64,000 nt of DNA from Azolla caroliniana (lineage: Eukaryota; Plantae; Polypodiophyta): NCBI GenBank assembly GCA_043228905.1, contig JBHGNT010000011.1, positions 6,076,001-6,140,000 on the forward strand, read 5' to 3'. This document shows, one piece after another, positions 1 to 29,701 of the stretch. Numbering within the stretch: position 1 is the first letter of the stretch; every line of letters starts with the position of its first letter. The notes below the pieces were generated by a model. The model saw only the letters and a program-made list of their open reading frames with translations, was not told the origin of the DNA and made no database searches. The position numbers and the translations under genes are program-made.

Positions 1-1300
1 TTAGGTGCACATCTTCTAGCTTTCGCAACACTTTCTCGCAATCATGAATATGGTCGACCACGAACTTTCGGCATCCCCGATCATCCATAGTCTCATCTTT
101 TTCTTCCACCGCGCATCCTTTCATCGGAATGTCATCTAGAAACGGCATCGTTATCTCCGGGATGCAATCTCGAAGCACCTTGTTCATCGCGTTCATCATA
201 TGTGCAACCGAGTTTGTCGCTCCTTGTGGTAGTGTGCACATTCGAACTAGTCCTATCGGTGTCCGCATGGTAGTGATGTCTCGGCTCTCCACGGCTAGTT
301 GGAATTGGTCATACCCCGAGTATAGGTCCCCGATGGAGTATATCGCACGTCCGGCAAAAGCTTCCGCGAATTCGTCCACTATCGGACCGACTCCCGAGTT
401 CCGGATCGTGACCTTGTTCACCGGTTGCAAGTCTTGGATGAATCGGAGCGACCCATTCTTCTTCGGAACCGTAAACCATCGATTTGAGTACGGAGCACTT
501 GATGGCTCTAGAATCCCCATCGCCACCTTCTCCTTGAGCAAGTCGATGACTTTCGGAATATGCGCCCGTGGCACCGGAATCGGCTTCAGGTTCCACGGTA
601 CATGATCAATCGTGAAAATCACCATCGGCTCCACTATCTTTGGATCAATGCATCCGATCTCCCTCGATGTGAACGCGAATGCTTTGCCATGTTGCTCCAA
701 CATCTCTCGAAACCGTTTTTCTTCTTCTTGTAAGAGGAACCCACCTCCACCGATCCGAAGTTTCTTCCGGGTCTCATCTGTGAAGGCATGTCCGATATCC
801 ACGGACTTCCGAAGTGTCGGATCTCCCGAGACTTCTTTCTTCTTTTGTTCGCTATCGGCGGGTAGTGGTCCCGCGGCCGGTTTCACCTTCTTCTCCACGG
901 TCTTGTATTTCGTACTTACCATTGCTTCTTCTTTGCGGAGCGCATCCGGCCCCATTTTCGCAACGATCTCGTACATCTCGACCGATTCCACCGGGACTAC
1001 CCGGTTCCCTTGGCTTTTATCTTCCGCAAGCTCTTCAAGCCGTTGTAGTGTATTCCCATAGAACACTTCCTCGATCACTCCCACGATTTCTTCGTCTTCT
1101 TTTATTATTGATGCCGACCGTAACTTATCCTCCACTTGTCGGTATTGTTTCTTCATTCCTCTGGTTACGGCCGTGTACGTAGATGCCCCATCCGGGCCGA
1201 TTCGTACTTGTTTTGCTCCGAGAGTTTTCTTCCTGTGTGGGGTATCAGGGCTTCTCGGACTATCACTTCCCCACTCCGCAATAGTCCGCTTTAAAAATCC
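1..1300 (-). CDS. pol: Pol (RT N-terminal part) of copy A, partial, entered by inferred -1 frameshift
   Basis: Mirror of the 5553-6850 pol region; encodes RT motifs DLYSGYDQ, LPQGATNS, FLDD; open to the window edge. Confidence 0.88.
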
Positions 1301-3083
1301 ATTCTCACTTGGGACAAGAGTTCCCTCTTGTTCCTTTCGTGATTTGCCGGCACCGTTAGGAATTGGACGGATTTCCCTCCGTTTTGGCTCCGAATTCGCG
1401 CAAAAGCCGCACCACTATCGAGCACCTTCGTCTCCATCCGTGAAGCCGTGATAAAGGGTTGGCCGAGGATGACAGAATGTGAAACCTCATCCTGCACAAA
1501 GAAATTTTGGTCAATTTCGACATCCCCGATCTTTACCGTCACATCCGGACAAGCCGCAAATAGGTCTTCTGTCGTTTTCATGGCTGCCCGAATCTTCCAT
1601 CCATGGTTGGTGTTTATAGGCCACTTCCCCTTTCGGTAGAACTCCTTGGACATCAAGTTGATCTCCGATCCGTGATCAATCAATGCTAGCACGGGTTCTT
1701 TGATGTTGCCGATTCGGACCGGAGTCTCCGTAGTCGCACGTGCCCAGTGTGGCCTTGTATAGTGGGAGTTCGGAATTTCGCCTTCCACTTCGGTGTCGTT
1801 CATTGAAACGGTATTTGCATTCACCCTTGGAGCATTTTCCTCCGTACTTTGTCTCTTCCTTTTTACAAGATCCACGAGAAGATCGTGAAACTCCTTCTTC
1901 GCTATTCCGAGTAGTTCCCGCAGCGAAAAATCTACCCGGCTATCCAAGATTCTTTCCTCGAACACTCTTTTCAAGTCAGTTTGTTGTTCTATGTCCGAGG
2001 CGAGCTTGAATGCCGGAGTCGCCTTTTCTTTTCCCTTACCTCCGGAGTTCCAGCTTTCCGGTATCTTCGATGGTCCGGCCGCATCCTCCGTGCGCCGTCG
2101 TTTCTCGTCCACATACACCTCATGTAATTGACACAGGGCGTATATGCTATTCTTGTCGACAGGGCACTCCCATCCCGTAGCTTCCCAGACGCCTTCCGCG
2201 GTGTTTCGGATATCGTTGGAGTCGGTTTTCTCGGTGTTTCCTAGCACCTCCGGCCAGAAAGACGCCTTCGCTCCCGTTGACTCCCCGACACATATTCCCG
2301 CGGTTGTCGCATAGTTGCTTCTTGCTGCTAACTCCTCCTCGAGCACCTTCTTCATGCCGCCTTTCCGGAAGTTCGGTCGGAGTGGCTTCCGAGAGTCCAT
2401 CGAATGAATCCGGTTTCCCTCGTAGTAGATGAGATCCCGTCGTAGCGCCTCCTTATGGTCGTCGCAATCCCTCCGATCGTGTTCGGCGCTATCGCACCAT
2501 ATGCACCGTCGATCCGTATATTTGGAGCTTGTGGGGCGGTCATCCGACTTCTTCACCATCGCGATCTTTAGATTCTCCATCTCCTTCAGCAGCTGCTCCA
2601 CCGTAGACGCGTCGACCCCCTTCTCGGCCGTAATCTCTCGGGCCCTCGGTTGATGGTCTTCCAGTCCCGTTCTCGGTTTCGGAATCGGTTCCGAAACCCT
2701 CTCTTCTTCGTTGGCAAGCCATTGCCCCCTCTTCGTGTACCGCGCGACGATATCCCGTACGCTTTCCCATGTTTCGGTGAGGCCGCTTTCGGTGGTCGTG
2801 TCCTCAAGAAGCACTCCGAGATCTTTCCGGTCCCGGACGTCCACAGCTCGCAAAAACATGATGACTTTGTCCGGTGCAAGAATAGTTTGATCTCTCGCGG
2901 ACAACCTCCCGAACCGACTTTCGAATGTCGAAAACACTTCGAGGACCTTCAGCCCCTTACCTGACGTTTCCACCCAATCCTCGAATCCCCTCCGCGTTGC
3001 CTTGGAGGAGTCCTCGATGGCAAACGTGGTCTTTAACGCCTCTTCGAATGCTTCCCACGTCGGATTTTGTTGTTGCAACCCGT
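1291..3083 (-). pseudogene. gag: Gag-protease ORF of copy A, interrupted by insertion
   Basis: Zinc knuckle CIWCDSAEHDRRDC and aspartic protease ALIDHGSE; the first ~71 aa of the listed 668-aa ORF are read-through from the inserted LTR. Confidence 0.9.
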
Positions 3084-3954
3084 TGTCGTAGTGTAGGTTG
3101 CACACTATGTGAAAATTATATTTTTGTCCCTCCGGATAGAGAATGGAGTGCTCGGGGAGAACCGGAAGAAAACGGCATACCGGCAAGGAGGAAAAACGGC
3201 ATACCGGCAAGGAGGAAAACGGCATACCGAGGAAAAACGGCATACCGGCAAGGAGGAAAACGGCATACCGGCAAGGAAGAAAACGGCATACCGGCAAGGA
3301 AGAGCCGGATAAAGAGACATAAATGTAAAAAGAAAGGAAATACTCACTACTGCGCAGGGCGTGATTCGAACTCTACACCTCCACGTTGACAAACCCCAAC
3401 CTTACCATTACATTAACTTATCTTAAGTGCTTTAAATATAGATTTAATATGTATAAGACCTTTATTTATGCATACCTTTATTAAAAGGTAAATCGTGTAT
3501 TCTTTAATATATGAAAAAGAAAAAACACGAGACACTAAAAATAACTCATGCACATCTAGCGTGCATGAGCCCTATACTTAGGAAATAAAAAAGCATCACA
3601 TGCACATTTAGTGGACATGAACACTTTTTGTAAAAAAAAAGCATGAAGCCATGCTTAGCTCTTCCTTCCTTATATAAGGAGGAGAGAAATATGTAAAGAG
3701 TTGTTGATTATTTGGATTAAGTATTAATCAATACAAAAATTATTCGTGGGATTCACGATTTATACATCTACTTCTCTCTTAACACCCTAAGTACCAATTA
3801 ATATAGTATACTCGTGTGATTCACGAGTTTCTTATCTTTCTCTTTGCTATTTACTCATAATTAATCTCTATCTCACGAACTTCTTTCTCCTAGTCCAAGA
3901 CCTCTGTGGTTCCCACCCGACTCACGCAACGATCCGGAGCCGAAAGGCACGACA
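3084..3954 (+). repeat. 5' LTR of copy B (871 bp)
   Basis: TGTCGT...ACGACA termini; first half repeated from 9149; TATATAA at ~3670; ~6 copies of a ~21-bp AAAACGGCATACCGGCAAGGAGG repeat at ~3168-3300. Confidence 0.95.
3351..3418 (-). other. tRNA-like (A box/B box) cassette in LTR U3; further copies at 9416-9483 (-) and 9763-9830 (+)
   Basis: Minus strand reads TAATGTAATGGTAAG...TTTGTCAA...GAGGTG...GAGTTCGAATC with tRNA-like spacing; stems poorly paired. Confidence 0.6.
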
Positions 3955-3958
3955 CAGT

Positions 3959-3976
3959 TGGTGAACCCGACGTGAA
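3959..3976 (+). promoter_or_regulatory. Primer binding site, tRNA-Trp
   Basis: TGGTGAACCCGACGTGAA is complementary to the plant tRNA-Trp 3' end as recalled (TTCACGTCGGGTTCACCA); 4 nt after the LTR. Confidence 0.9.
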
Positions 3977-3992
3977 GACGGGTGGCAAGGAG

Positions 3993-5562
3993 ATGGAGGC
4001 TCAACAAGCTAACAATATGATGGCGATGTTCGAACGGATGCTTCAAGAACAACGCACGATGTCGGAGATTTCGGCATANNNNNNNNNNNNNNNNNNNNNN
4101 NNNNNNNNNNNNNNNNNNNNNNNNNNNNNNNNNNNNNNNNNNNNNNNNNNNNNNNNNNNNNNNNNNNNNNNNNNNNNNAAGAACGGGATTGGAAGACCAT
4201 CAACCGAGGGCTCGGGAGATTACGGCCGAGAAGGGAGTCGACGCGTCTACGGTGGAGCAGCTGCTGAAGGAGATGGAGAATCTAAAGATCGCGATGGTGA
4301 AGAAGTCGGATGACCGCCCCACAAGCTCCAAATATACGGATCGACGGTGCATATGGTGCGATAGCGCCGAACACGATCGGAGGGATTGCGACGACCATAA
4401 GGAGGCGCTACGACGGGATCTCATCTACTACGAGGGAAACCGGATTCATTCGATGGACTCTCGGAAGCCACTCCGACCGAACTTCCGGAAAGGCGGCATG
4501 AAGAAGGTGCTCGAGGAGGAGTTAGCAGCAAGAAGCAACTATGCGACAACCGCGGGAATATGTGTCGGGGAGTCAACGGGAGCGAAGGCGTCTTTCTGGC
4601 CGGAGGTGCTAGGAAACACCGAGAAAACCGACTCCAACGATATCCGAAACACCGCGGAAGGCGTCTGGGAAGCTACGGGATGGGAGTGCCCTGTCGACAA
4701 GAATAGCATATACGCCCTGTGTCAATTACATGAGGTGTATGTGGACGAGAAACGACGGCGCACGGAGGATGCGGCCGGACCATCGAAGATACCGGAAAGC
4801 TGGAACTCCGGAGGTAAGGGAAAAGAAAAGGCGACTCCGGCATTCAAGCTCGCCTCGGACATAGAACAACAAACTGACTTGAAAAGAGTGTTCGAGGAAA
4901 GAATCTTGGATAGCCGGGTAGATTTTTCGCTGCGGGAACTACTCGGAATAGCGAAGAAGGAGTTTCACGATCTTCTCGTGGATCTTGTAAAAAGGAAGAG
5001 ACAAAGTACGGAGGAAAATGCTCCAAGGGTGAATGCAAATACCGTTTCAATGAACGACACCGAAGTGGAAGGCGAAATTCCGAACTCCCACTATACAAGG
5101 CCACACTGGGCACGTGCGACTACGGAGACTCCGGTCCGAATCGGCAACATCAAAGAACCCGTGCTAGCATTGATTGATCACGGATCGGAGATCAACTTGA
5201 TGTCCAAGGAGTTCTACCGAAAGGGGAAGTGGCCTATAAACACCAACCATGGATGGAAGATTCGGGCAGCCACGAAAACGACAGAAGACCTATTTGCGGC
5301 TTGTCCGGATGTGACGGTAAAGATCGGGGATGTCGAAATTGACCAAAATTTCTTTGTGCAGGATGAGGTTTCACATTCTGTCATCCTCGGCCAACCCTTT
5401 ATCACGGCTTCACGGATGGAGACGAAGGTGCTCGATAGTGGTGCGGCTTTTGCGCGAATTCGGAGCCAAAACGGAGGGAAATCCGTCCAATTCCTAACGG
5501 TGCCGGCAAATCACGAAAGGAACAAGAGGGAACTCTTGTCCCAAGTGAGAATGGATTTTTAA
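3993..5562 (+). CDS. gag: Gag-protease polyprotein of copy B (spans the assembly gap)
   Basis: ATG 17 nt after the PBS; CCHC knuckle; protease LIDHGSE...VILGQPF; ends MDF-stop. Confidence 0.9.
4079..4178. other. Assembly gap (100 N)
   Basis: Run of N; comparison with copy A shows more than 400 nt of gag are missing, so the gap size is nominal. Confidence 1.
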
Positions 5563-5616
5563 AGCGGACTGTTGCGGAGTGGGGAAGTGATAGTCCGAGA
5601 AGCCCTGATACCCCAC
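5553..5616 (+). promoter_or_regulatory. -1 ribosomal frameshift signal (G GAU UUU plus H-type pseudoknot)
   Basis: Pol is in the -1 frame and open from 5553; stem 1 = 5565-5573/5589-5597, stem 2 = GTGGGG 5579-5584/CCCCAC 5611-5616; conserved at 16794-16856. Confidence 0.8.
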
Positions 5617-8600
5617 ACAGGAAGAAAACTCTCGGAGCAAAACAAGTACGAATCGGCCCGGATGGGGCATCTACGTACACGGCCGTAACCGGAGGAATGA
5701 AGAAACAATACCGACAAGTGGAGGATAAGTTACGGTCGGCATCAATAATAAAAGAAGACGAAGAAATCGTGGGAGTGATCGAGGAAGTGTTCTATGGGAA
5801 TACACTACAACGGCTTGAAGAGCTTGCGGAAGATAAAAGCCAAGGGAACCGGGTAGTCCCGGTGGAATCGGTCGAGATGTACGAGATCGTTGCGAAAATG
5901 GGGCCGGATGCGCTCCGCAAAGAAGAAGCAATGGTAAGTACGAAATACAAGACCGTGGAGAAGAAGGTGAAACCGGCCGCGGGACCACTACCCGCCGATA
6001 GCGAACAAAAGAAGAAAGAAGTCTCGGGAGATCCGACACTTCGGAAGTCCGTGGATATCGGACATGCCTTCACAGATGAGACCCGGAAGAAACTTCGGAT
6101 CGGTGGAGGTGGGTTCCTCTTACAAGAAGAAGAAAAACGGTTTCGAGAGATGTTGGAGCAACATGGCAAAGCATTCGCGTTCACATCGAGGGAGATCGGA
6201 TGCATTGATCCAAAGATAGTGGAGCCGATGGTGATTTTCACGATTGATCATGTACCGTGGAACCTGAAGCCGATTCCGGTGCCACGGGCGCATATTCCGA
6301 AAGTCATCGACTTACTCAAGGAGAAGGTGGCGATGGGGATTCTAGAGCCATCGAGTGCTCCGTACTCAAATCGATGGTTTACGGTTCCGAAGAAGAATGG
6401 GTCACTCCGATTCATCCAAGACTTGCAACCGGTGAACAAGGTCACGATCCACTCGGGAGTCGGTCCGATAGTGGACGAATTCGCGGAAGCTTTTGCCGGA
6501 CGTGCGATATACTCCATCGGGGACCTATACTCGGGGTATGACCAATTCCAACTAGCCGTGGAGAGCCGAGACATCACTACCATGCGGACACCGATAGGAC
6601 TAGTTCGAATGTGCACACTACCACAAGGAGCGACAAACTCGGTTGCACATATGATGAACGCGATGAACAAGGTGCTTCGAGATTGCATCCCGGAGATAAC
6701 GATGCCGTTTCTAGATGACATTCCGATGAAAGGATGCGCGGTGGAAGAAAAAGATGAGACTATGGATGATCGGGGATGCCGAAAGTTCGTGGTCGACCAT
6801 ATTCATGATTGCGAGAAAGTGTTGCGAAAGCTAGAAGATGTGCACCTAACACTTTCCGGGGAGAAATCGGCATTCGGGCAAGAAGAAATATTGGTGGTCG
6901 GACATCTATGTGGACCCTACGGCCGAAGACCGTCACCAACAAAGATCGATGCGATTCAAGCTATGAAGGAAGTATGTGAGTCAACATCGGAAGTCCGAAG
7001 GTTTCTGGGTGCGTGTGCATTCTATCACATATGGATTCCGCACTATGCACATATAGCGGACCCGCTCTATCACTTGTTGCGGAAAGGTAAGAAATTCGAG
7101 TGGAAACCGGAACACACTAAAGCCATGAGGAAGCTCAAGAAGACACTATGGAGGGCGGAATCACTTAAGAAGCCAAGCTACGAGCGGCCAATCATAGTAA
7201 CGGTTGATACAAGTCCAACCGGTATCGGGTGGGTCATCAATCAAGCCGACTCGGATGGTTCGCGGTATCCGATCCGATTTGGAGCAAAGGTCCTCAACGA
7301 AAGGCAACGCGGATATGCACAAGTCAAAAGAGAATTGTGGGGAGTCGTGTCGGCGATAAAATCGGATCGGGATTATTTGATCGGAGCTGAAGTGGTGATC
7401 GAGACGGATTGTCTTCCGATACTCGGGATGATGCGGTGTTGTACGATACCGGATGTGGCTATGCTAAGGTGGATTGCATATGTCAAGTCACTTAATCCGG
7501 AGGTTCGACACATCTCGGGGAAGGACAACGCGGTAGCGGACATGTTATCGAGGGCGCGGTTTGAAGACGACATAACCGAATCAGATAATGAAGAAGTTTC
7601 CGAAGACTACTTCACGTCAGAACACATATGCCGAGTGAACGTGATCCGAGAATTCCGGGAAGAAGAATACGAGGGGGAAACCTTGATGATCGGGAAGATG
7701 CTACAAGAGGTCGAGGATTCAACCAATGATAAAGAAAGGAGAGCCGAGATCCGAAGGAAGAAGAGGCAAGTCCAAAAGTTCTTCTTGGAAAACGGTTTAA
7801 TATGGAGGACGCCGAAAAGACCGGATGGGATACCACTTCGAGTAGTCGGGACGAAAGAGCAACGAAACCGGATAATGTCTGAGTTCCACGAATCCGATTG
7901 GGCTGGACATCGAGGAACATGGGCAACTTTTGTGAAAATCAAGCAAAGATATTGGTGGAAGAACATGTATAAAGATGTCGCGGAGTTCACAGAAAGCTGC
8001 GAGAAATGTCAAGTCTACTCCGGGGTCCGACACCGAGATGAGCTGCATCCGACATTCTCACCGACAATCAACTTCAAGTGGATGGTCGACATTGTAGCTA
8101 TGCCGACCGGGATTGGACAAAAGAAATACTTGGTGTTAGCTCGAGAAGATCTCACAAACCAAGTTGAAGGTCGAGCGCTTCGGAGGAAAACGTGTGCCGC
8201 GGTGTGCCAATTTCTTTTGGAAGAAGTGTTTTGTAGGTACGGCTGCGTAGGACAAGTGATTGCGGACCGGGGAGAACTCGACTCGGACAAAGCTAGGGGA
8301 TTCTTCGCCAAACATGGAGTTCGGTTAACGTTGACAACGGCCTACAATCCGGAGGCCAACGGGAAGATCGAACGAGGACATAGTCCGATCGTGAAAGCAC
8401 TTGCGAAGGCATGCGACGGAAGGGTGAAGGATTGGCCACAAATGCTTCCGTATGCACTATGGGCGGATCGGACGACGCATAGCTCCGTGACCGGTTACAT
8501 GCCGGCAGAACTCATGACCGGACAAGCACCGGTAATGCCAACGGAAACCGCAATCGCGACATGGACAATACTACCGTGGAAGGAAGAGATGAGCCGGGAA

Positions 8601-9161
8601 GAACTACTAGCGGTCCGGATACGACAACTGGAGGGAAGACCGAAAGATGTAGCGGAAGCGTCACGCCGACAACACGAAGCACGGTTCCGGAACAAAAGCC
8701 GGTTCGACACAAAGCACCGACTACGACCGAGGAGGATTGAAGAAGGAGATTGGGTGATCGTCTATGATAGGAGCTTGGACCATCAACATACAACGATGCG
8801 GAAATTCGCGAAAAGGTGGTTCGGGCCGTACGAGGTTCGGAAGGTCTTCGACAACGGGACGTACCGACTGTCCGAGTTGGATGGAACAATACTACGAGTG
8901 CCTATAGCCGGGAAGCGGGTGAAGATTTTCAAGAAGCGGACCGACGACAAACCTTATGTGATCCAAGTCGAGGCCGACAACGAGGAACAATCGGACGAAG
9001 ACCACAATGATGCGGGAAGCGAAGAAAGTGGATTACAACTCATAGTCGACATAAGGGGAGAATCGGAGGAAGCTTCGGATGAAGACGGATACGAAGAATC
9101 AAGAACTTCGGCACATACCGGAGGATGTGCGGGTTTGGAGGGGGCGAGTGTCGTAGTGTAG
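5553..9161 (+). CDS. pol: Pol: reverse transcriptase, RNase H, integrase
   Basis: RT FLDD, RNase H VDTS/ETDC/ADMLSR, integrase HHCC (H..GH..CEKC), ADRG, NGKIER, GPY motif, acidic tail; uninterrupted for 1154+ aa. Confidence 0.96.
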   Translation, partial: GFLKRTVAEWGSDSPRSPDTPHRKKTLGAKQVRIGPDGASTYTAVTGGMKKQYRQVEDKLRSASIIKEDEEIVGVIEEVFYGNTLQRLEELAEDKSQGNRVVPVESVEMYEIVAKMGPDALRKEEAMVSTKYKTVEKKVKPAAGPLPADSEQKKKEVSGDPTLRKSVDIGHAFTDETRKKLRIGGGGFLLQEEEKRFREMLEQHGKAFAFTSREIGCIDPKIVEPMVIFTIDHVPWNLKPIPVPRAHIPKVIDLLKEKVAMGILEPSSAPYSNRWFTVPKKNGSLRFIQDLQPVNKVTIHSGVGPIVDEFAEAFAGRAIYSIGDLYSGYDQFQLAVESRDITTMRTPIGLVRMCTLPQGATNSVAHMMNAMNKVLRDCIPEITMPFLDDIPMKGCAVEEKDETMDDRGCRKFVVDHIHDCEKVLRKLEDVHLTLSGEKSAFGQEEILVVGHLCGPYGRRPSPTKIDAIQAMKEVCESTSEVRRFLGACAFYHIWIPHYAHIADPLYHLLRKGKKFEWKPEHTKAMRKLKKTLWRAESLKKPSYERPIIVTVDTSPTGIGWVINQADSDGSRYPIRFGAKVLNERQRGYAQVKRELWGVVSAIKSDRDYLIGAEVVIETDCLPILGMMRCCTIPDVAMLRWIAYVKSLNPEVRHISGKDNAVADMLSRARFEDDITESDNEEVSEDYFTSEHICRVNVIREFREEEYEGETLMIGKMLQEVEDSTNDKERRAEIRRKKRQVQKFFLENGLIWRTPKRPDGIPLRVVGTKEQRNRIMSEFHESDWAGHRGTWATFVKIKQRYWWKNMYKDVAEFTESCEKCQVYSGVRHRDELHPTFSPTINFKWMVDIVAMPTGIGQKKYLVLAREDLTNQVEGRALRRKTCAAVCQFLLEEVFCRYGCVGQVIADRGELDSDKARGFFAKHGVRLTLTTAYNPEANGKIERGHSPIVKALAKACDGRVKDWPQMLPYALWADRTTHSSVTGYMPAELMTGQAPVMPTETAIATWTILPWKEEMSREELLAVRIRQLEGRPKDVAEASRRQHEARFRNKSRFDTKHRLRPRRIEEGDWVIVYDRSLDHQHTTMRKFAKRWFGPYEVRKVFDNGTYRLSELDGTILRVPIAGKRVKIFKKRTDDKPYVIQVEADNEEQSDEDHNDAGSEESGLQLIVDIRGESEEASDEDGYEESRTSAHTGGCAGLEGASVVV
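9111..9148 (+). promoter_or_regulatory. Pre-PPT hairpin and polypurine tract
   Basis: GCACATACCGGAGGATGTGC hairpin, then GGAGGGGGCGAG directly before the LTR TG. Confidence 0.8.
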
Positions 9162-10031
9162 GTTGCACACTATGTGAAAATTATATTTTTGTCCCTCCGG
9201 ATAGAGAATGGAGTGCTCGGGGAGAACCGGAAGAAAACGGCATACCGGCAAGGAGGAAAAACGGCATACCGGCAAGGAGGAAAACGGCATACCGAGGAAA
9301 AACGGCATACCGGCAAGGAGGAAAACGGCATACCGGCAAGGAAGAAAACGGCATACCGGCAAGGAAGAGCCGGATAAAGAGACATAAATGTAAAAAGAAA
9401 GGAAATACTCACTACTGCGCAGGGCGTGATTCGAACTCTGCACCTCCACGTTGACAAACCCCAACCTTACCATTACATTAACTTATCTTAAGTGTTTTAA
9501 ATATAGATTTAATACGTATAAGACCTTTATTTATGCATACCTTTATTAAAAGGTAAATCGTGTATTTTTTTAATATATGAAAAAGAAAAAACACGAGACA
9601 CTAAAAATAACTCATGCACGCTAGATGTGCATGAGTTATTTTTAGTGTCTCGTGTTTTTTCTTTTTCATATATTAAAAAAATACACGATTTACCTTTTAA
9701 TAAAGGTATGCATAAATAAAGGTCTTATACGTATTAAATCTATATTTAAAACACTTAAGATAAGTTAATGTAATGGTAAGGTTGGGGTTTGTCAACGTGG
9801 AGATGCAGAGTTCGAATCACGCCCTGCGCAGTAGTGAGTATTTCCTTATTTTTACATTTATGTCTCTTTATCCGGCTCTTCCTTGCCGGTATGCCGTTTT
9901 CTTCCTTGGCCGTTTTCCTCCTTGCCGGTATGCCGTTTTTTTCCTCCTTGCCGGTATGCCGTTTTCCTCCATTCTCTATCCGGAGGGACAAAAATATAAT
10001 TTCCACATAGTGTGCAACCTACACTACGACA
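9149..10031. repeat. Long inverted repeat: half 3' LTR of B (9149-9619) fused to inverted half 5' LTR of A (9627-10031)
   Basis: Centre CTCATGCAC-gctagat-GTGCATGAG; ends in CACTACGACA at 10031. Confidence 0.93.
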
Positions 10032-10213
10032 GCGCTATGGTGACGTAGTAGATTAACAGAGTCCTTTAGAAAACCCATCTGTAAATGGTAAATGCAACAA
10101 CATGTGTATCGATCCTTTAAGCGTCTCACAAAGTGTGGCTTAAGAGACTCGAATGTTCGTAGTTGAACTTTGATAGTTGGATGCATTCGTTTGAACCTAA
10201 TAAATAAATCGAC
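10032..10213 (-). CDS. Transposase-like exon 2 (not in the ORF track), cut by the LTR at 10031
   Basis: AG acceptor at 10215-10214, phase 0; VDLFIRFKRMHPTIKVQLRTFESLKPHFVRRLKDRYTCCCIYHLQM with a CxCxxH motif. Confidence 0.75.
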
Positions 10214-10244
10214 CTACGTAATAAAGGGGAATTAGTTGTTCTCG

Positions 10245-11290
10245 TAACTAGCTAGCTATCCTAGTAGCTAATTAGCTATTCTAGTAGCTTATTAGCTATT
10301 CTAGTAGCTTATTAGATATTCTAGTAGCTTATTAGCTATCATGGTAGCTAATTAGTTGTCCTAGTAGCTAATTAGTTGTCCTAGTAGCTAATTAGCTGTC
10401 CTAGTAGCTAATTAGCTATCATGGTAGCTAATTAGCTATTCTATCATGGTAGCTAATTAGCTATTCTAGTAGCTAATTAGCTATCATGGTAGCTAATTAG
10501 CTGGTCTAGTAGCTAATTAGCTTTCCTAGTAACTAATTAGCTATCATGGTAGCTAATTAGCTGGTCTAGTAGCTAATTAGCTATCATGGTAGCTAATTAG
10601 CGGGTCTAGTAGCTAATTAGGTATCATGGTGGCTAATTAGTGGTCCTAGTAACTAATTAGCTATCATGGTAGCTAATTAGTTGGTCTAGTAGCTAATTAG
10701 CTATCATGGTAGTTAATTAGCTGGTCTAGTAGCTAATTAGCTATAATGGTGGCTAATTAGCTATCCTAACTAATTAGCTATCATGGTAGCAAATTAGCTG
10801 GTCTAGTAGCTAATTAGCTATCCTAGTAAGCTAATTAGGTATCATGGTAGCTAATTAGCTTTCCTAGTAGCTAATTAGCTGGTAATAACGAAATAGCTAA
10901 CTAGCTACCAATACAGCTAATTATCTGGTAGTACCTAAATTAGCTATTGAGAATAGCTAATTAGCTATCATGGTAGTAGCTATTGAGAGTAGCCAGTTAC
11001 CTATGTAGTAGCTATCCTAGTAGCTAACTAGCTATCATGGTAGCTAATTAGCTTTCCTAGTAGCTAATTAGCTGGTAATAACGAAATAGCTAACTAGCTA
11101 CCATGATAGCTAACTAGCTACCAATACAGCTAATTATCTGGTAGTACCTAAATTAGCTATTGAGAATAGCTAATTAGCTATCATGGTAGTAGCTATTGAG
11201 AGTAGCCAGTTACCTATGTAGTAGCTATCCTAGTAGCTAACTAAGGTAAATGTAACTGATAAGCTAATTAGCTTTTTTGCTAACTAAGCT
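10245..11290. repeat. Intronic ~20-bp minisatellite built on the palindrome TAGCTAATTAGCTA
   Basis: Dozens of degenerate units TAGCTAATTAGCTATC(CTAG/ATGG), with a higher-order duplication at ~10840-11240. Confidence 0.95.
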
Positions 11291-11341
11291 AATTAACTTT
11301 CCGTGTAGAGTCAAAACAAATGTTGAGATAAATGTAAATAC

Positions 11342-12425: not shown

Positions 12426-13245
12426 GAGAACCCCGTTAGATTGAACAGTTACCGATGATGCTTGGAACACACATAGAAGGCACCTGAGAGTAGAGTGGCA
12501 CAGAGAAGAGAACCTCATCAGATTGAACAGTTACCAATGATGCTTGGAACGCACAGTAGTGGCCCCTGAGTGTAGAGTGGCACAGAGAAGAGAACCCCGT
12601 CAGATTGAACAGCTCTTTGATGATGCTTGGAACGCACGGTAGTGGCCCTTGAGTGTAGAGTGGCAAAGAGAAGAGAACCCCGTCAGATTGAACAGCTCTT
12701 TGATGATGCTTGGAACGCACGGTAGCGGCCCCTGAGTGTAGAGTGGCACAGAGAAGAGAACCCCGTCAGATTGAACAGCTCTTTGATGATGCTTGGGACG
12801 CACAGTAGCGGCCCCTGAGTGTAGAGTGGCAAAGAGGAGAGAACCCCGTCAGATTGAACAGCTCTTTGATGATGCTTGGAACGCACGGTAGCGGCCCCTG
12901 AGTGTAGAGTGGCAAAGAGAAGAGAACCCCGTCAGATTGAACAGCTCTTTGATGATGCTTGGAACGCACGGTAGCGGCCCCTGAGTGTAGAGTGGCAAAG
13001 AGAAGAGAACCCCGTCAGATTGAACAACTCTTTGATGATGCTTGGAACGCACGGTAGTGGCCCCTGAGTGTAGAGTGGCACAGAGAAGAGAACCCCATCT
13101 GATTGAACAGCTCTTTGAGGATGCTTGGAATGCACAGTAGTGGCCCCTGAGTGTAGAGTGTCACAGAGAAGAGAACCCCGTCAGATTGAGCAGCTCTTTG
13201 ATGATGCTTGGAACGCACAGTAGCGGCCCCTCAGTGTAGAGTGGC
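12426..13245. repeat. 83-bp tandem array, ~10 copies (degenerate units back to ~12240)
   Basis: Unit GAGAACCCCGTCAGATTGAACAGCTCTTTGATGATGCTTGGAACGCAC...; the 83-nt period is also visible in the staggered ORFs. Confidence 0.97.
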
Positions 13246-13694
13246 AGCAGGTGGACTCGATAGGGTTTAGCAACAGTGGTAGCAACTAACCCACAGTACT
13301 TAACTAGAGATGGCCTACGTGATGTGGCAAAGGATCATGCATAATGGACCTAGGAATTCGATATATAATTTATGGTACACATTTATGGTGCACACATCAA
13401 TTTATGTTTTGCACATTTATGGCACTCATTTACATATGTAATTAAAACACTCTAGTATTTTCAATGGTAGTTTTTTGCATACTTAATTTATTAATGATGG
13501 CTTTTTACTAAAATGACTATTTATCAATGGTAGCTTTTTGCATAGCTAATTAGCTATGTCAAGGACATAGCTAATTGTTTCCACTCGCATGCTTTCACCC
13601 TTATATATAAAACATTATCAAATGTTATTTTAGTTACGTATTTATCTAATTGTAGACTTTTAATGTGAAGCTTTCGTACTTCACGACATCCACC

Positions 13695-16793: not shown

Positions 16794-19700
16794 GGATTTT
16801 TAAAGCGGACTATTGAAGCATGGGGCACAAATAGTCCGAGCAATCATAAGTCCCCACAAGGAAGCAGAGTGTGTGGATTGCAAGGAGAAGCAACATGTGT
16901 CACACCTAGTGGCGCATGCAAACTAAAACTACTCAATAAGAAGGAAAAGTGTCAAATACAAGACTTCGAGGAGGTGCTGAAAGAAGAAAGCATAATCCAA
17001 GAAGAAGAATTCGTGTCATATATTCTCGAGGAAGCCTCATTTAACGACACCATCGGCGAAATCGAGGAAGTCGTGGACATGAGCTATCCTCACCATCAAC
17101 ATGTATACTATCATCTATGAATATCATCGAGGCATCTTGATAGAGGAAGCCGAAGTCAACACAAAATATAAAACCGTGGATAGGAAGATCAAGCTAGTTG
17201 TAGTTCCACTACCGGAAGATAGCTGGCAAAAGATGAAGGAAGTTGCAAAAGATCCAAGCTTAAGGAACCCAAATACAATTGGTCACGTCTTCACTGAAGA
17301 GATGAAGGGAAAGCTACGAGTTGGAAGGGAGGATTTCCTCCTCCCTAAAGAGGAGCGGATGTTTCGTGGAATGCTTGAAAGACATGGGAAGGCTTTCACG
17401 TTTTTCCCACAAGAAATCGGGTGTGCTAATCCAAGGACGGTAGAAATGATGGTGATCTTCACGGTGCCGCATGTGCCTTGGAATTTGAAACCAATACTGG
17501 TTCCGAGAGCACACCTATCGAAGTTGATCGAGCTCTTAAAGGAGAAGGTGAGGATGAGAATTCTAGAACCGTCGAATGCTCTTTATTCTAATCGATGGTT
17601 CATGGTGCCAAAGAAGAATGGATCGTTGCAATTCATTCAAGATCTTCAACCTATCAACAAGGTGACAATTCGGAATGTTGGAATCGGTCCGAGTGTGGAT
17701 GAATTTGCCAAGGCGTTTGCGGGCCGGTCCATCTACTCCATCAACGATCTCTACTCTGCTACGATCAATTCCAGTTGGCGGTAGACAGTCGTGACATTAC
17801 AACCATGAGAACTCCAATCGGGTTGGTGCGGATGTGTACCTTACCTCAAGGCATAACAAACTTAGTGGCTCATATGGTGAATGCCATGAACAAGGTCTTG
17901 AAGGATTGCATCCCAAATATCACGATGCCATTCTTAGATGATATCCTGATAAAAGGATGTTCGAATGAAGAGAAGGATGAATCAAAAGATAAGGATGGAT
18001 GTAGAAAGCTCGTCGTGGATCATATGAAAGATTGTGAGAAGGTGCTCAAAGGCTCGAAGATGCGAATTTGACATTTTCGGGAGAAAAATCCGCATTCGGG
18101 CAACCAGAGATCCTAGTGGTAGGTCACTTGTGTGGAGCATACGGTCGGAAGCCTTCGCCATCCAAGGTGAATGCAATCCAAGACATGAAAGAAGAATTTG
18201 TAACCCAAACGGAGGTTCGAAGGTTCCTTGGAGCATGCGCGTTTTATCATATTTGGATTCCACACTATGCCCATATTGTTGAGCCATTATATGGTCTACT
18301 AAAGAAGAAGCGGATGTTCGAATGGACGAGTGAGCATACAATCGCCATCCGAAGGCTGAAGAAATTATTGATGGAGGCACCTGCACTACGGAAAGCGGAC
18401 TATTCATATAGCAAGCCCATTTTCGTGACTATGGATACTAGTCCAATCGGAATTGGATGGGTTATCAACCAAGAAGATGAAGATTGCAACCGATATGCAA
18501 TTCGATTTGGCGCGAAAGTGTTAAGTGACAAGCAAAGAAGGTATGCCCAAGTGAAGAGGGAGCTATGGGAATCGTCTCGGCAATCAAATCTGATCGTGAT
18601 TACCTTATTGGAGCAGAAGTCATAATTGAGACAGATTGCCTACCAATTTTGGGTATGATATCTGGTTGTAATACACCGGATATTTCCATGTTGTGTTGGA
18701 TTGCATATATCAAATCACTCAACCCGGAGATCCGTCATGTAGCTCGGAAGTGTAATGTCGTTGGAGACATGCTATCACAAGCGAGATATGACGAAGAAGA
18801 AGATCAACATTCTAATGAAGATGATGTTGGCTTGGATTTCTTGGCAAGTTCCTTCGCTAGGGTGTTGACTACTTTCATAGAAGAGGACTAGGAAGGCGAA
18901 TTCGTGGAGATCGGGAAATACTTGAGTTCTCTCCAAAAAGATGAATCATGGTCGACGGAAGACTTCCATCGAATTCGGAGGCATGCAAAAAAGAAGAATG
19001 GGACTCTGTAAAGAATCAAGAGATGGATTCTTGTGAAGCGGAATAGGTGTGAACTGTGTGTGTATGTGTATGAGAGAGAGAGAGAGAGAGACACAAAGTA
19101 TACGCAAGGTTAAGTATATTAGCAAAGGATAAAGACTCAACATTATACAAGGTGGGAGGAGGGTGCTTTATGTAGTCACCCTCTCTCTTCATTAACTACA
19201 AGACTCATGGAGCATGGGGAATGTGAAAGCTCATAAGTTATGTGTCATAGAATATGATTCTATGACTCATACTAAATGCTAGAATACAAAGTGGTGACTT
19301 AATGGTGACTCTTGACCGTTGGAGTGTCTATTCACTCTCAAGGTGAGTTCACACACTAGACCAAGTTGAGCTTGATTCTCAACAAACTCCAATGAGAGTT
19401 GTCTGCAAGCTAGAAGACCAACAAAAACTAATGTCTGAATTTCATGATAGTGTTTTTGCAGGCCATCGAGGAATATGGGCTACGTTTGCGAAGCTTAAGG
19501 AGAAATATTGGTGGCCGAGCATTTACAAAGATGTAGCAACTTATGTGGAAACATGTAAGGAATGTCAAATGTTTTCGAATATTCGCCATCGAGATGGACT
19601 TCATCCAACTTACCCGTTGGCTATGCCTTACAAGTGGATGGTGGACATCGTGATGATGCCAATAGGGCGATGGCAGATGAAGTATCTTGTGCTCGCGAGA

Positions 19701-24345: not shown

Positions 24346-27300
24346 TGTTGGAAGCAATGTCGTCAGTGCGGAAGATCTTGAAGCACTCGATTCCTGTTTA
24401 TTCCCTGTGTATGACAGAATGTAGGTCGTTGCACAGAGAGAGAGAGAGAGAGACACAAAAGACTCTTTATTTCACAAAGCAATAATACAACAACCAACCT
24501 CACAAAGAGGTTACAAGGTCACTATATATAGTGACCGACTTAGGGCAACTACCCTTTATGCTAATTACATAAATGGCCAAAACGGGATGGTGTGAATACG
24601 TCCATTATACACATGTATTCGACACTCCCCCGTAATGGGCGTATACATGGGTTATCTAAGATTACAGGTATAGACTTAGGTTCTCGGACATATCAGCTTT
24701 GTTCGAGTCGGCAGGATCCGAAGACAGAAGACCGAACTGGTCGGGTCGGAACAGTTGAAGCCGATCATTAAGGAGCTGATGTCGGTTGTCGGGAACCATC
24801 CTGCTCTGTGTCCGGCTCTAACCGGACTGGTTTGTCGTTACGCCCATCTGATGCCGAAGAGACCGAAAACGGTCTGCCGAGAGACATTTGGTCATTCCAT
24901 CTGCGACATTATCGGTTGTGGATATTTTCTCTAGACCGATTTTCCCTGAAATGACGCAGTCCCGAACGAAGTGATATCGAACGTCGATATGTTTGGAGGC
25001 GTTGTGGTGAACCGGATTTTTCGACAAGGCAACAGCACCTTGACTGTCGCTGTAGACAACTGGAGCCGAGTCATGTTCGACTTGTCGAAACGTGTGCGCC
25101 AGCCGACCGAGCCACAAAGCTTCTTTTGCTGCGTCGGACGCAGCTACATATTCTGCTTCGGTCGTTGAGGTCGCTGTGCACTCCTGAAGTTTCGACTTCC
25201 ACGAGATTGCTCCATTGCCGAATTTGAAGCAGTATCCGGTTGTTGATTTCCGACTGTCTATACAACCGGCGAAGTCCGAGTCGGTGTAACCGACTACGCC
25301 TGAGGTTCGGTTCGGTCCGAAAAGAATGCCATGGTCTTTTGTGCCAGCCAGATATCTGAACACATGCTTGACTGCGTTCCAATGCGATCGGCCAGGATTG
25401 TGCATAAATCTGCTAACGACTCCTACGGCATGAGAGATGTCAGGCCGTGTCGCGACCATCAGGTACATAAGGGAGCCGACTGCCGGTGCATACGGTACCG
25501 ACTTCATATCTTCCCCCTCCGAACCGGATGTCGGGCAGTCTCGCTGAGAGAGCCGAAGATTCATAGGGAGTGGGGTTGAAGCAGATTTGGCTGATTGCAT
25601 GTTGAAGCGTTCCAAGACACGTCCGATATAGTCGGTCTGAGACAAAAAAAGATGTCGTTTATCGCGATGCCGACTAATCTTCATGCCAAGGATGTGTCGT
25701 GCCGGACCGAGGTCCTTCATGGAAAACTTCAACCGCAGTTGCCGAACGAGATCGGCAAGTTCGCCCGCGTGGCGTCCAGAAATTAGCATGTCGTCCACGT
25801 AAATGATGAGGAAGATGGGTGATCCATCTCGAGCTGTGTTGGTGAAGAGACAATGGTCCTCATCGCTTTTGGAGAAGCCGATTGATTGGATGAAGTCGTC
25901 GAACTTCTTGTACCATTGTCGCGGTGCCTGTTTGAGGCCGTATAGACTCTTCCTGAGTCGGCAGACTAGATGTTCTTGGCCAGTTGCCACGAAGCCTTTT
26001 GGCTGCTCCATATAAATTTCCTCCTCGAGATCACCATGGAGGAAGGCTGTTTTGACATCTAGCTGAATCAGCTCCAAGTTGTCGGCTGCCACGACGCCGA
26101 GCAGAAGACGAAGGGTTGTCATTTTCACCACTGGTGAAAAAATCTCGTCGAAGTCGACGCCATATTCTTGTCGGAAGCCCTTCGCAACTAATCTGGCCTT
26201 GTACTTTGGGGTGGTCGAATCAGACGTCTCTTTTAGTCGATAAACCCACTTGCAAGGAAGAGCACGTCGGTTCCTAGGTAATTCGACCAGATCCCAAGTC
26301 TTGTTTGCCCGGATGGAGTGCATTTCCGACTCCATCGCCAGATGCCAGGTGGCCGAATCGACAGATGTCGATGCTTCTTCGTAAGACGTCGGTTCGCCGG
26401 CGTCGGTGAAGAAAATTCCAGGAGAATACCTCTCCGGAGGTTGCGACAGTCTCTCGGATCGTCGAGGTATGATTGGACTGGTCGCATCGGGTATCGAGGT
26501 CGGATGGTCCGAAACCGAATCATTCGGCTGTGCCGAGTCAGAGTTGTCCGAGTCGGTAGTATAAGGTTCAGCTACCCGTGAAGCTGACCGTGTGTTGAGA
26601 GCGGGGCCTTCTTGAAGGGTCGGCACATCGGAGAATGTTACCCTTCGGACTTCGATCGGTTTTTCGACTGATGGATTCATAGCCGACTCGTTGAACACAA
26701 CGTCCGAACTTCGAACGATTTGTCTGCGTTCGGGGTCCCAGAGTCGGTATCCCATTTCGCCGTCTGATCCATATCCAAGGAAAATGCATTTCCTGGACCG
26801 AGGTGCAAGTTTTCGGCGATCATCTTTCGGAATGAGGGCGTACGCCTCGCATCCGAAGATCCTCAGCTTGTCGTAATTCGGCTTACTGCCGATCCATAGT
26901 TCCTGAGGAATTTGAAGTCCTAGAAGTCTACTTGGCGACATATTGATTATGTGTACTGCCGTGAGTAGAGCCTCTGCCCAGAAGCCATCCGATAGTCCGG
27001 AGTGTTGGAGCATGGAAACTATCCTTTCTTGGATTGTCCGATTCATTCGTTCGGCAATCCCGTTTTGCTCCGGACTGTGTGGTGCCGTAAATTCACGTCG
27101 GATGCCGCGTTGTCGGCAGAATTTGACGAATTCATCGGATTTGAACTCTCCCCCATTGTCTGTCCGAAGGCATTTCAGCTTTCGGTCGGTTTGATTTTCT
27201 ACCATAGCGAGCCAATCGGTGAAGATCGAGAAGACACGATCTTTGGTGCGAATTGGATAAGCCCACACCTTTCGAGTCGAATCGTCAATAAAACTGACGA

Positions 27301-29701
27301 AGTAAGAGGCACCGCCTAGAGACTGATGCGGCATTGGGCCACAGACGTCCGAATGGACTAAATCGAGAGGTCTCGTTTCTCTTGGTGCTGATGTCGGGTG
27401 TGATGCGGCTACTTGTTTGCCATACTGGCAATGCTCGCAGAATTGATGGTCCGAGAAGGAGAGTTTGGGGATGTATCCGGCGCTAGATAGGTGCGTGATG
27501 CCGGTCTTGCTGAGGTGTCCTAATCTTCGGTGCCATAATGATGACACAGGAATGTCCACCAAAAACAGGTTACCCTCTCTGAGCGTAACATGTAACGGAT
27601 ACAGTGAGTGTATCTTGGGTCCTCTAGCAAGCAGGAGGTTCCCCCTGTGGAGTGTCCACCCTCCCGAAGAAAAACCGGCACGAATGCCGTCTTCATCTAG
27701 TTGTCCGACTGAGATCAATGGCCTTGTGAGCTCGGGTACATGTCGGACATTGTGGAGTACAAGTGTAGAGCCCCCTGCAAGGTTGAGCTCTACTGTGCCG
27801 ATTCCGACGATGTCACAGTGTTGTGAGTTGCCGACTCGAACTGAGTCGGAGTGACGGATCGTATATTGCCGAAATTGGGATCGATGAGGAGTCACGTGAA
27901 ATGACGCGCCCGAATCCAAGAGCCATGTGCTCGATTCTTCAGTCGTGAGTAGAACTTCTGATCCGACTGGATTTTCTATTGATAGTATATTCGGGTCGTC
28001 CGGTAGTACATCAGCTGAGAAGCTGACGTAATTGATCTCCTCATGCCGGCCACTCTTCTTGTTGTTCTTGTTCTTGAGTGCGCGGCAGTCGGCTTTGATG
28101 TGTCCGGGTTTCTTGCAATAGTTGCAGATTCGGTTATCCCGTGACTGGCTCCGTCTTCGCTGATTGTTCGGCGGCCGTGAGGAATCTCGTCCTCGTATGT
28201 TCGATTGGTCTGTCGAACCTTGTACTACGTAGGCGTTGTCTGTTGAGTCTTTGGCGAAAGACTTTCTCCGAGCTGCTTCGGTCAGGATTGCGCTCGTGAC
28301 TTCGGAGTATTTAACAGCCGTGGTTGACGCGTTGCACACGGTTGTGACGAAAGTTTCCCATGATGGGGGAAGGCTGCTCATGAGTATCATTGCTCTGAGT
28401 TCATCCTCGATTGTCGTCCCCTGTGACGAGATTTGGGAGATTATGCTTTCGTACTCATTGAGGTGTGCTTGGACCGAGTCGGATTCTTTCATCCGCAAGT
28501 TGTAGAGGCGCCGGATCAGAAACATCTTCGTTGCGGCGACCTTCTTTTCGTAAGTGTCCGACAGTGTTTTCCACAGTTCGAATGCTGTCGTACACGATTG
28601 CACCGTGAAGTATACCGATTCCGATAGGTGCATCCGAATCGTGGCGCGGACGATTCTGTCCAGCTTCTGCCACTCAATTGGTTTGTATCCTTCTGGAGGT
28701 TCTTCATTTTCGATGGGATCGATTTGCCCCTTGACTATGAGATAGTCCTGCATTTGCTCCTTCCAGAAGTTAAAGTTCGATCCATCGAACTTTCGTAGAC
28801 TCATTTCTGACGAGCCGGATGTTGATGCCATCAAATTTGGTTTCGGTTGACGAAGCTCGGTTCGGAGTTGACTACGAATCTTGTTGGAGTGCAGCCTGTT
28901 GGCTCACCCGATATCGTTCTAGTCGGATTTGAACCCGAGTCGGTTCGGCTTCGGATATATGTATTGTTGAACTTGCTCGAATTGACTACGGTAACCTGAG
29001 GGACAGAACCGACTGGTCTTCCCGAATGTCGCCGAGTCGGAGTGAGCCCGGTTCACTTCGGATATATATGCCGAATACCGATTATTGAAACCGATTATCT
29101 GGACCGATTCGGCTTCGGGTGACTGCAGCGACGAGAGAGACGGATCCGACTGATCCTCCCGAATGTCGATCAGCCAGATGAAGCACGAATTTGGGTTGTT
29201 GTCAAAGTTGCACAAGGGGATTTCACCTCGAGCGGTTACGATCACAAGGGACAGAGTACAACCTGCTGGCTTACTCCAAGCAAGGGGATCTAACGCGATG
29301 AGGTGCAAACCTCGTTTTTGTTCTTCTTCTCTCTTTCTTCGAATGACGCAGGAAACCGAATGCAGAGACGACGGCCGACAGCGGATTGAAGGACCGACTA
29401 CTGTGCAGGCTCTGATACCAGATGTTGGAAGCAATGTCGTCAGTGCGGAAGATCTTGAAGCACTCGATTCCTGTTTATTCCCTGTGTATGACAGAATGTA
29501 GGTCGTTGCACAGAGAGAGAGAGAGAGAGACACAAAAGACTCTTTATTTCACAAAGCAATAATACAACAACCAACCTCACAAAGAGGTTACAAGGTCACT
29601 ATATATAGTGACCGACTTAGGGCAACTACCCTTTATGCTAATTACATAAATGGCCAAAACGGGATGGTGTGAATACGTCCATTATACACATGTATTCGAC
29701 A
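24346..29701 (-). mobile_element. Intact Ty1/copia element (Tnt1/Tork-like), 5356 bp
   Basis: 279-bp LTRs 24346-24624 and 29423-29701 identical by eye; TSD GTAGA on both sides; iMet PBS TGGTATCAGAGCC 29408-29420; PPT 24625-24633. Confidence 0.98.
24818..28834 (-). CDS. Copia Gag-PR-INT-RT-RH polyprotein, 1338 aa
   Basis: CNYCKKPGHIKADC, LLDSGAS, LWHRRLGH, TDNGGE, YVDD, TDSD, KHID all in one ORF. Confidence 0.98.
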   Translation of the reverse strand: MMASTSGSSEMSLRKFDGSNFNFWKEQMQDYLIVKGQIDPIENEEPPEGYKPIEWQKLDRIVRATIRMHLSESVYFTVQSCTTAFELWKTLSDTYEKKVAATKMFLIRRLYNLRMKESDSVQAHLNEYESIISQISSQGTTIEDELRAMILMSSLPPSWETFVTTVCNASTTAVKYSEVTSAILTEAARRKSFAKDSTDNAYVVQGSTDQSNIRGRDSSRPPNNQRRRSQSRDNRICNYCKKPGHIKADCRALKNKNNKKSGRHEEINYVSFSADVLPDDPNILSIENPVGSEVLLTTEESSTWLLDSGASFHVTPHRSQFRQYTIRHSDSVRVGNSQHCDIVGIGTVELNLAGGSTLVLHNVRHVPELTRPLISVGQLDEDGIRAGFSSGGWTLHRGNLLLARGPKIHSLYPLHVTLREGNLFLVDIPVSSLWHRRLGHLSKTGITHLSSAGYIPKLSFSDHQFCEHCQYGKQVAASHPTSAPRETRPLDLVHSDVCGPMPHQSLGGASYFVSFIDDSTRKVWAYPIRTKDRVFSIFTDWLAMVENQTDRKLKCLRTDNGGEFKSDEFVKFCRQRGIRREFTAPHSPEQNGIAERMNRTIQERIVSMLQHSGLSDGFWAEALLTAVHIINMSPSRLLGLQIPQELWIGSKPNYDKLRIFGCEAYALIPKDDRRKLAPRSRKCIFLGYGSDGEMGYRLWDPERRQIVRSSDVVFNESAMNPSVEKPIEVRRVTFSDVPTLQEGPALNTRSASRVAEPYTTDSDNSDSAQPNDSVSDHPTSIPDATSPIIPRRSERLSQPPERYSPGIFFTDAGEPTSYEEASTSVDSATWHLAMESEMHSIRANKTWDLVELPRNRRALPCKWVYRLKETSDSTTPKYKARLVAKGFRQEYGVDFDEIFSPVVKMTTLRLLLGVVAADNLELIQLDVKTAFLHGDLEEEIYMEQPKGFVATGQEHLVCRLRKSLYGLKQAPRQWYKKFDDFIQSIGFSKSDEDHCLFTNTARDGSPIFLIIYVDDMLISGRHAGELADLVRQLRLKFSMKDLGPARHILGMKISRHRDKRHLFLSQTDYIGRVLERFNMQSAKSASTPLPMNLRLSQRDCPTSGSEGEDMKSVPYAPAVGSLMYLMVATRPDISHAVGVVSRFMHNPGRSHWNAVKHVFRYLAGTKDHGILFGPNRTSGVVGYTDSDFAGCIDSRKSTTGYCFKFGNGAISWKSKLQECTATSTTEAEYVAASDAAKEALWLGRLAHTFRQVEHDSAPVVYSDSQGAVALSKNPVHHNASKHIDVRYHFVRDCVISGKIGLEKISTTDNVADGMTKCLSADRFRSLRHQMGVTTNQSG

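Follow-up and report, generated by a model that had tools for sequence, protein, structure and literature searches.

How is the polymerase of an LTR retrotransposon made when it lies in a frame other than that of Gag and protease? The question is raised by a Ty3/gypsy element, here called copy B, in a stretch of 64,000 nt (the window hereafter) from a repeat-rich fern genome of 523 Mb. Its ORF1 carries Gag and protease and translates to a C-terminus ...RMDF*, while its pol frame, −1 relative to ORF1, is open through 1240 codons. In copy B itself ORF1 is broken by an assembly gap (N 4079–4178); in another, ungapped copy the intact ORF1 is a single frame of 679 aa. The first-pass annotation had proposed that a slippery heptamer and a pseudoknot at this junction direct a −1 shift located after the protease. 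The heptamer GGATTTT abutting the TAA, the open −1 pol frame, the loop GTGGGG with its partner CCCCAC and a related motif in a diverged second family were all found where it had placed them (Table 1).

The element is Phygy-like by its sequence traits. Its domains follow the order GAG-PROT-RT-RH-INT, and a domain search of ORF2 gave no chromodomain match; no env ORF is seen in the element. It has a primer binding site complementary to tRNA-Trp and an NCGN-type 4-bp target duplication, seen as GCGC/GCGC at locus L071 and clear in three of the six full elements of the variant clade described below. Another observation in that clade is the apparent target duplication of 6 bp, not 4 bp, of the full element L193. 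One family-1 copy measures about 7.36 kb and variant-clade elements 7.9–8.0 kb, next to a Phygy range of 7656–9968 bp. Both NCGN duplication and tRNA-Trp priming are given as Phygy traits by Neumann et al. 2019 (PMC6317226), in whose Additional file 5 the ORF organisation of the lineage is entered as not determined (ND). Named ORF1 homologs come from Physcomitrium patens, Riccia sorocarpa and Adiantum nelumboides. Clusters from Basidiomycota with DUF4100-protease are present in the Atlas, and a search of viral contigs found no relative. Matches to the tRNA-Trp 3' motif form two clusters in this genome, G000:C8:17796786-17823371 (about 16 matches) and G000:C16:4989495-5105637 (about 19), many of them 1.2 kb apart; three matches outside those clusters were confirmed as tRNA-Trp genes.

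Copy B lies head-to-head with a second copy, A (window 1–10034). The gag of copy A ends at 3083, at the 5' LTR of copy B behind CCGT, and the 3' LTR of copy B breaks at 9635 into an inverted LTR piece (9611–10034); the layout reflects either a nested insertion plus rearrangement or an assembly artefact. Elsewhere, the window contains a Ty1/copia polyprotein open for 1361 codons (24818–28903, minus strand) and flanked by direct repeat copies that are 100% identical over at least 282 nt. It also holds tandem arrays at 10170–11300 and 12454–13334 with units of 20 nt and 83 nt, and distant gypsy-type pol remnants at 49276–51884 and 37029–38191 (both minus strand), 18–28% identical to the pol of copy B.

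Table 1 Features of copy B and of related signals, in window coordinates.
Feature	Position	Strand	Remark
Ty3/gypsy element, Phygy-like	copy B in window	+	Gag-protease ORF and RT-RNaseH-integrase ORF
5' LTR	3084..3954	+	CCGT just before
Primer binding site, complementary to tRNA-Trp	3959..3975	+	
ORF1, Gag (CCHC knuckle, DUF4100) and protease	3993..5562	+	ATG at 3993
Protease domain, retropepsin fold, D-H-G motif	5119..5502	+	structure model; Asp at 5176-5178
ORF2, −1 frame: linker, RT, RNase H, integrase	5439..9161	+	RT at 6384-6905
Slippery heptamer G_GAU_UUU, last two ORF1 codons (Asp-Phe)	5553..5559	+	nucleotide-level conservation, 43 junctions
ORF1 stop TAA and 6-nt spacer	5560..5565	+	TAA at 5560-5562
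Predicted pseudoknot stem 1	5566..5596	+	core 8 bp, 5566-5573 with 5589-5596
Predicted stem 2, 5' strand GUGGGG, inside stem 1 loop	5579..5584	+	
Predicted stem 2, 3' strand CCCCAC	5611..5616	+	
Polypurine tract, then truncated 3' LTR	9137..9635	+	tract 9137-9148, LTR from 9149
Copy A signal, A-U in place of copy B G-U	1237..1300	−	A where B has G at 5571
Signal in decayed family-2 element	16794..16856	+	

Two details of the original proposal needed adjustment. The stem, which it had set 5 nt downstream of the heptamer, is present, but its conserved part begins at 6 nt, since the outer pair C5565–G5597 is C-G in only 14 of the 43 junctions compared below; in the family of copy B an 11-bp stem is predicted (5565–5575 with 5587–5597). 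The A-U pair of copy A, offered against the G-U pair of copy B, is a true difference, but being a one-sided change it is weak evidence alone, and the double compensatory changes come from other families, not from the comparison of these two copies. The motif GGATTTTTAA occurs three times in the window against 0.25 expected, and none of 100 shuffles reaches three; since the occurrences are homologous repeats, they count as no independent events. In this genome, the 64-nt signal has 259 exact copies (control 0), and a looser signal pattern has 722 matches, some double-counted, in at least four families (control 0). The 259 exact copies, with the same frame found at 58 related loci, rule out chance or a frameshift mutation confined to a single copy. 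The hairpin alone is no more stable than its shuffles (z −1.1 and −1.2), and the family-2 61-mer has a competing nested fold. An Rfam scan of positions 5400–5800 returned no family match, its single hit being a chance miRNA match at E 9.6.

We compared the frames of the best 80 of 176 related stretches of metagenome contigs. Eight lack the protease end and 11 an RT match, and 61 remain; RT lies in the −1 frame in 58 of them and in the +1/−2 frame in three. All but one of the 58 (57) are free of stops from before the ORF1 stop through to RT. L137, in the +1 frame, was excluded as decayed, its RT frame opening only 202 nt past the stop, and with duplicates also removed there are 43 distinct junctions, 41 of them −1. 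One assembly series supplied 71 of the 80 loci, so these junctions are related, not independent. In 13 of the 41 −1 junctions the stretch of open −1 frame ahead of the heptamer is only 3–9 nt long, which pins the shift to the heptamer site.

A GG-N-TTT-Y heptamer is found in the zero frame at 61 of 61 loci, at a distance of 0, 3 or 15 nt from the stop that follows. Of the 11 loci with no RT match, five have no in-frame heptamer at the ORF1 end; these we read as decayed copies. Among the 43 junctions, the codon before the heptamer takes 12 different forms and ends in G in every case (background 0.30). The Asp codon within the heptamer is GAT in 38 junctions and GAC in none (background 247/144), and the Phe codon is TTT in 39 and TTC in four (background 86/128). 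Read in the zero frame, G_GAU_UUU is an X_XXY_YYZ-type heptamer with an imperfect XXX, and its synonymous positions are conserved. The stop follows directly in 35 of the 43 junctions (TAG 15, TAA 14, TGA 6), and the spacer before stem 1 is 6 nt in 41 of 41 −1 junctions; G_GA shift sites and spacers of 5–9 nt are both documented in excerpts of PMC5009743. At L140, L157, L160, L163 and L165, ORF1 stops 15 nt past the heptamer, in the pseudoknot region, with ends like DFHRMPL.

The same dipeptide can be followed in proteins. Among the best 120 of 220 ORF1 homologs listed, 76 end in DF, GF or NF, 25 have such a pair five residues before the end and four at other offsets, and in 15 it is absent; the listed homologs that have it include Riccia, Adiantum and Physcomitrium entries. 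The idea that DF is kept merely as a protease cleavage site fails on the excess of GAT over GAC and of TTT over TTC, and on the invariant G.

Stem 1 measures 31 nt from first to last base and is gap-free in the 43-row alignment. Its eight core pairs are 97.7% paired over the 43 junctions, with double changes in six of the eight; none of 500 shuffles reaches the score, slid controls are 39–48% paired, and RNAalifold returns the same eight pairs. The residues encoded under stem 1 vary (T/A/I/V; S/G; P/T/A) while the pairing holds, so the constraint acts on the RNA. For stem 2, pairing of 4–8 bp is possible in 43 of 43 junctions, with co-changes that include GCGAGA/UCUCGC, GAGGGU/ACCCUC and CAAGG/CCUUG. 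Its mean score is 15.7, against 14.1 for swapped halves (maximum 15.05 in 300) and 9.3–13.0 for downstream sequence. Held in a fixed register stem 2 is 75.6% paired, the register differing between families, and it mostly sets a G-run against a C-run. Covariation, gauged with shuffles that ignore relatedness among the 43 junctions, thus argues strongly for stem 1 and moderately for stem 2 of the predicted H-type pseudoknot. The original reading of a −1 signal of this kind after the protease is supported by the conserved frame, by the constraint at synonymous heptamer positions and by the covariation of stems 1 and 2.

The position of the protease was taken from a structure model of the last 153 residues of ORF1 (33-row alignment, pLDDT 76). 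In this model, a retropepsin fold occupies residues 7–134, with a disordered tail behind. It matches Ddi1 and retroviral proteases (best E 5e-6); the best sequence match in the PDB is a weak one, to Ty3 Gag-Pol at E 0.099. As modelled, the protease lies wholly within ORF1 and is complete before the shift site. The first-pass annotation inferred equal amounts of protease and Gag, with RT-RH-INT alone rationed; given a fold that is complete upstream of the site, the inferred 1:1 ratio follows from the anatomy. The post-protease placement itself is real, but less exceptional than it had implied, as Ogre and Retand are split there too. Of the 117 motif matches among the homologs listed, 115 read D-H-G at the putative catalytic site in place of D-T/S-G (window 5176–5184). 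A His at that position is unusual in retropepsins.

Two of the 43 junctions, L142 and L149, differ from the others. Their site reads AG_GUU_UUU, the spacer measures 5 nt and both stems are retained; pol occupies the −2/+1 frame, which opens ahead of the site and continues for 1153 codons in L142 and 1100 in L149. A pattern for this variant finds 104 matches in our genome (control 0), and 98 of 100 among the matches listed are of the variant type. The −1 frame is closed at the 14 variant loci compared: a stop stands 4 nt before the site in every one of them, and another follows within 5–80 nt, at 5 nt in 11 of the loci. RT is in the −2/+1 frame in 12 of the 14, two copies with later breaks placing it elsewhere. 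Of eight variant stretches, six have LTR pairs that are 99.5–99.9% identical, four have pol open through 1153 codons, and in two both frames are open. The LTRs of the clade appear young, and the clade recently active.

Between L142 and L149, pol is 81.6% identical with dN 0.10 against dS 1.15 (dN/dS 0.09), indicating purifying selection on pol in the variant frame. The two form a clade with support of 100/100 in a midpoint-rooted pol tree of 31 of the 43 rows (12 with fewer than 400 residues were left out), and the clade sits in an open fork; we infer the direction from −1 to −2 because all other families are −1. An assembly error as the source of the clade is ruled out by its roughly 100 copies and by gap-free junctions in contigs of two other studies. 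A −1 junction at L156:1258–1329 has G_GUU_UUC with a 6-nt spacer, and its site is a possible intermediate between the −1 and −2 types.

For the −1 families, we consider it very probable on comparative grounds that pseudoknot-stimulated −1 frameshifting after the protease joins Gag-PR to pol. Following what is known of −1 frameshifting (excerpts of PMC5009743), the pseudoknot 6 nt downstream would make the ribosome stall while GAU occupies the P site and UUU the A site, and in a minority of cases tRNA-Asp and tRNA-Phe would re-pair from GAU UUU to GGA UUU. Slipped ribosomes would read ...D-F-L-K-R into pol and yield a fusion of about 1879 aa (679 + 1200); most would terminate at UAA and release Gag-PR of 679 aa. 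The predicted outcome is a protease as abundant as Gag, with only RT-RH-INT in short supply.

Splicing of some transcripts, as reported for Ogre, could instead join pol to Gag-PR and leave the structure another role, and two observations speak for it: eight Riccia gene models among those listed join ORF1 to ORF2 and leave out the DF end, and one contig of run X2 skips 5543–5922, a length that would restore the frame. However, the breakpoints of the Riccia models differ from one another, and gene predictors invent introns at programmed frameshifts, as a part of 10.1101/2022.12.06.519325 describes; the X2 joint, bounded by AA..AG, is seen in a single contig that reaches 25 nt past it on the shorter side and is uninformative about splicing or expression. 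No donor-like position recurs in more than 8 of the 43 junctions, and splicing leaves the heptamer constraint and the fixed spacer unexplained, so that we give it very little credence. We credit even slightly less a separately made pol, from internal initiation, termination-reinitiation or a subgenomic RNA, with the pseudoknot acting in packaging or termination. In both −2 subfamilies an AUG of the pol frame does lie a little upstream of the stop of ORF1, but at different positions, and 13 of the 41 −1 junctions carry such an AUG in the −2/+1 frame too, which they do not use; the first Met past the site ranges from codon 3 to codon 111 over the 43 junctions. The last reading retains frameshifting and ascribes it to the stem 1 hairpin and the adjacent stop, stem 2 being unformed or irrelevant. 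That the stop abuts the heptamer in most junctions, that a neighbouring stop strongly affects G_GAU_UUU shifting in pea enation mosaic virus (excerpts of PMC5009743), and that stem 2 has only 4–5 bp in many families all speak for it. It is set against stem 2 complementarity that is present in every junction, co-changes and beats the swap null, and against five junctions that retain both stems with the stop 15 nt downstream; we judge it as improbable as splicing.

In the variant clade, pol is probably reached by a −2 slip on AG_GUU_UUU, as far as its sequences allow a prediction. A +1 slip, in which UUU re-pairs to UUG or UUU, would give the same frame and is inseparable from −2 by sequence, and +1 shifting is known in Ty1 and Ty3 (excerpts of PMC5009743); we nevertheless regard it as unlikely. 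After a −2 slip the transframe peptide would read in the same register as in the −1 families (F-L-x-R-T) and stem 1 would again lie 7 nt away, and in the commoner subfamily a +1 re-pairing from UUU would land on UUG. The variant site also matches the −2/−1 site of PRRSV, including the stop in the −1 frame (excerpts of PMC4937337), and its shorter spacer favours −2, for which the abstract of PMC3458567 gives an optimum 1–2 nt shorter than for −1. Taking −1 and −2 shifting together, it seems likely on balance that one conserved pseudoknot drives −1 across a moss, liverwort and fern lineage and that a recently active clade has been retuned to −2. Retuning would have involved a spacer one base shorter and a change from G_GAU_UUU to AG_GUU_UUU. 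Since the two clades differ by one spacer base and two heptamer positions, the spacer-length model is directly testable.

The main survey of retrotransposon recoding is reportedly that of Gao et al. 2003. Our literature search, in which subscription journals are thinly covered, returned no description of this signal or of a −2 shift in an LTR retrotransposon, and excerpts of PMC7466625, PMC11963269, PMC5006619, PMC5014426 and PMC8310308 give no account of the signal. Annotation of the two ORFs may already exist in Repbase and GyDB, and the post-protease split is already known from Ogre and Retand, by means other than a frameshift signal. New here is the variant clade with pol in the −2/+1 frame beside the same predicted pseudoknot, which predicts a natural switch from −1 to −2. 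If the −1 reading is true, it would settle how a lineage with ND as its ORF organisation expresses its polymerase, and account for false introns in gene models of this lineage. A predicted, covariation-supported frameshift pseudoknot family, absent from Rfam, is added. The −1/−2 pair lets the model of slip direction be tried on selected, not engineered, sequences; if the −2 reading is true as well, the clade would be an LTR retrotransposon example of a natural −2 shift driven by RNA structure, and would put the mRNA-tension model to an evolutionary test.

Several known systems share parts of this design. In Rous sarcoma virus, the protease ends Gag and a single −1 shift lies at the end of gag, so that protease is made 1:1 with Gag; a stop stands beside the heptamer and a pseudoknot is present, a layout like that of the fern element. 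Rous sarcoma virus is a retrovirus with env and with another heptamer and structure, whereas our element is a plant Ty3/gypsy one. MMTV and HTLV, as covered in excerpts of PMC5009743, also use a −1 shift past the protease into pol, but need an earlier gag-pro shift, unlike the single open Gag-PR frame seen here. Among plant elements, Ogre and Retand (Tat) likewise have GAG-PROT split from RT-RH-INT; according to excerpts of PMC6317226 the split is a spacer or intron in Ogre and an in-frame stop in Retand (49%), in contrast to the overlapping frames of our element, and the lineage table excerpted there lists none with overlapping frames after PROT. A −1 Gag-Pol shift has been proposed for Tcn1 and Tf1-sushi chromoviruses, including a Physcomitrella element and thus likewise in non-seed plants (excerpts of 10.1101/2022.12.06.519325 and PMC6317226). 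Their overlap sits between GAG and PROT, they carry a chromodomain and they are mostly self-priming, in all of which the present element differs.

Dianthoviruses and umbraviruses shift on the same G_GAU_UUU, on plant ribosomes and with a nearby stop; stimulation there comes from a stem-loop that base-pairs with a distant 3' element (excerpts of PMC5009743), whereas a compact local pseudoknot is predicted here. For −2 frameshifting, the cases listed in one review are a phage, arteriviruses and a totivirus. The nsp2TF −2/−1 site of the arterivirus PRRSV, GG_GUU_UUU, is the counterpart of AG_GUU_UUU in the variant clade, and a −1 frame stop comes right after both; in PRRSV a protein complex on a C-rich motif acts in place of an RNA structure (excerpts of PMC4937337), whereas the variant clade has its predicted pseudoknot 5 nt downstream.
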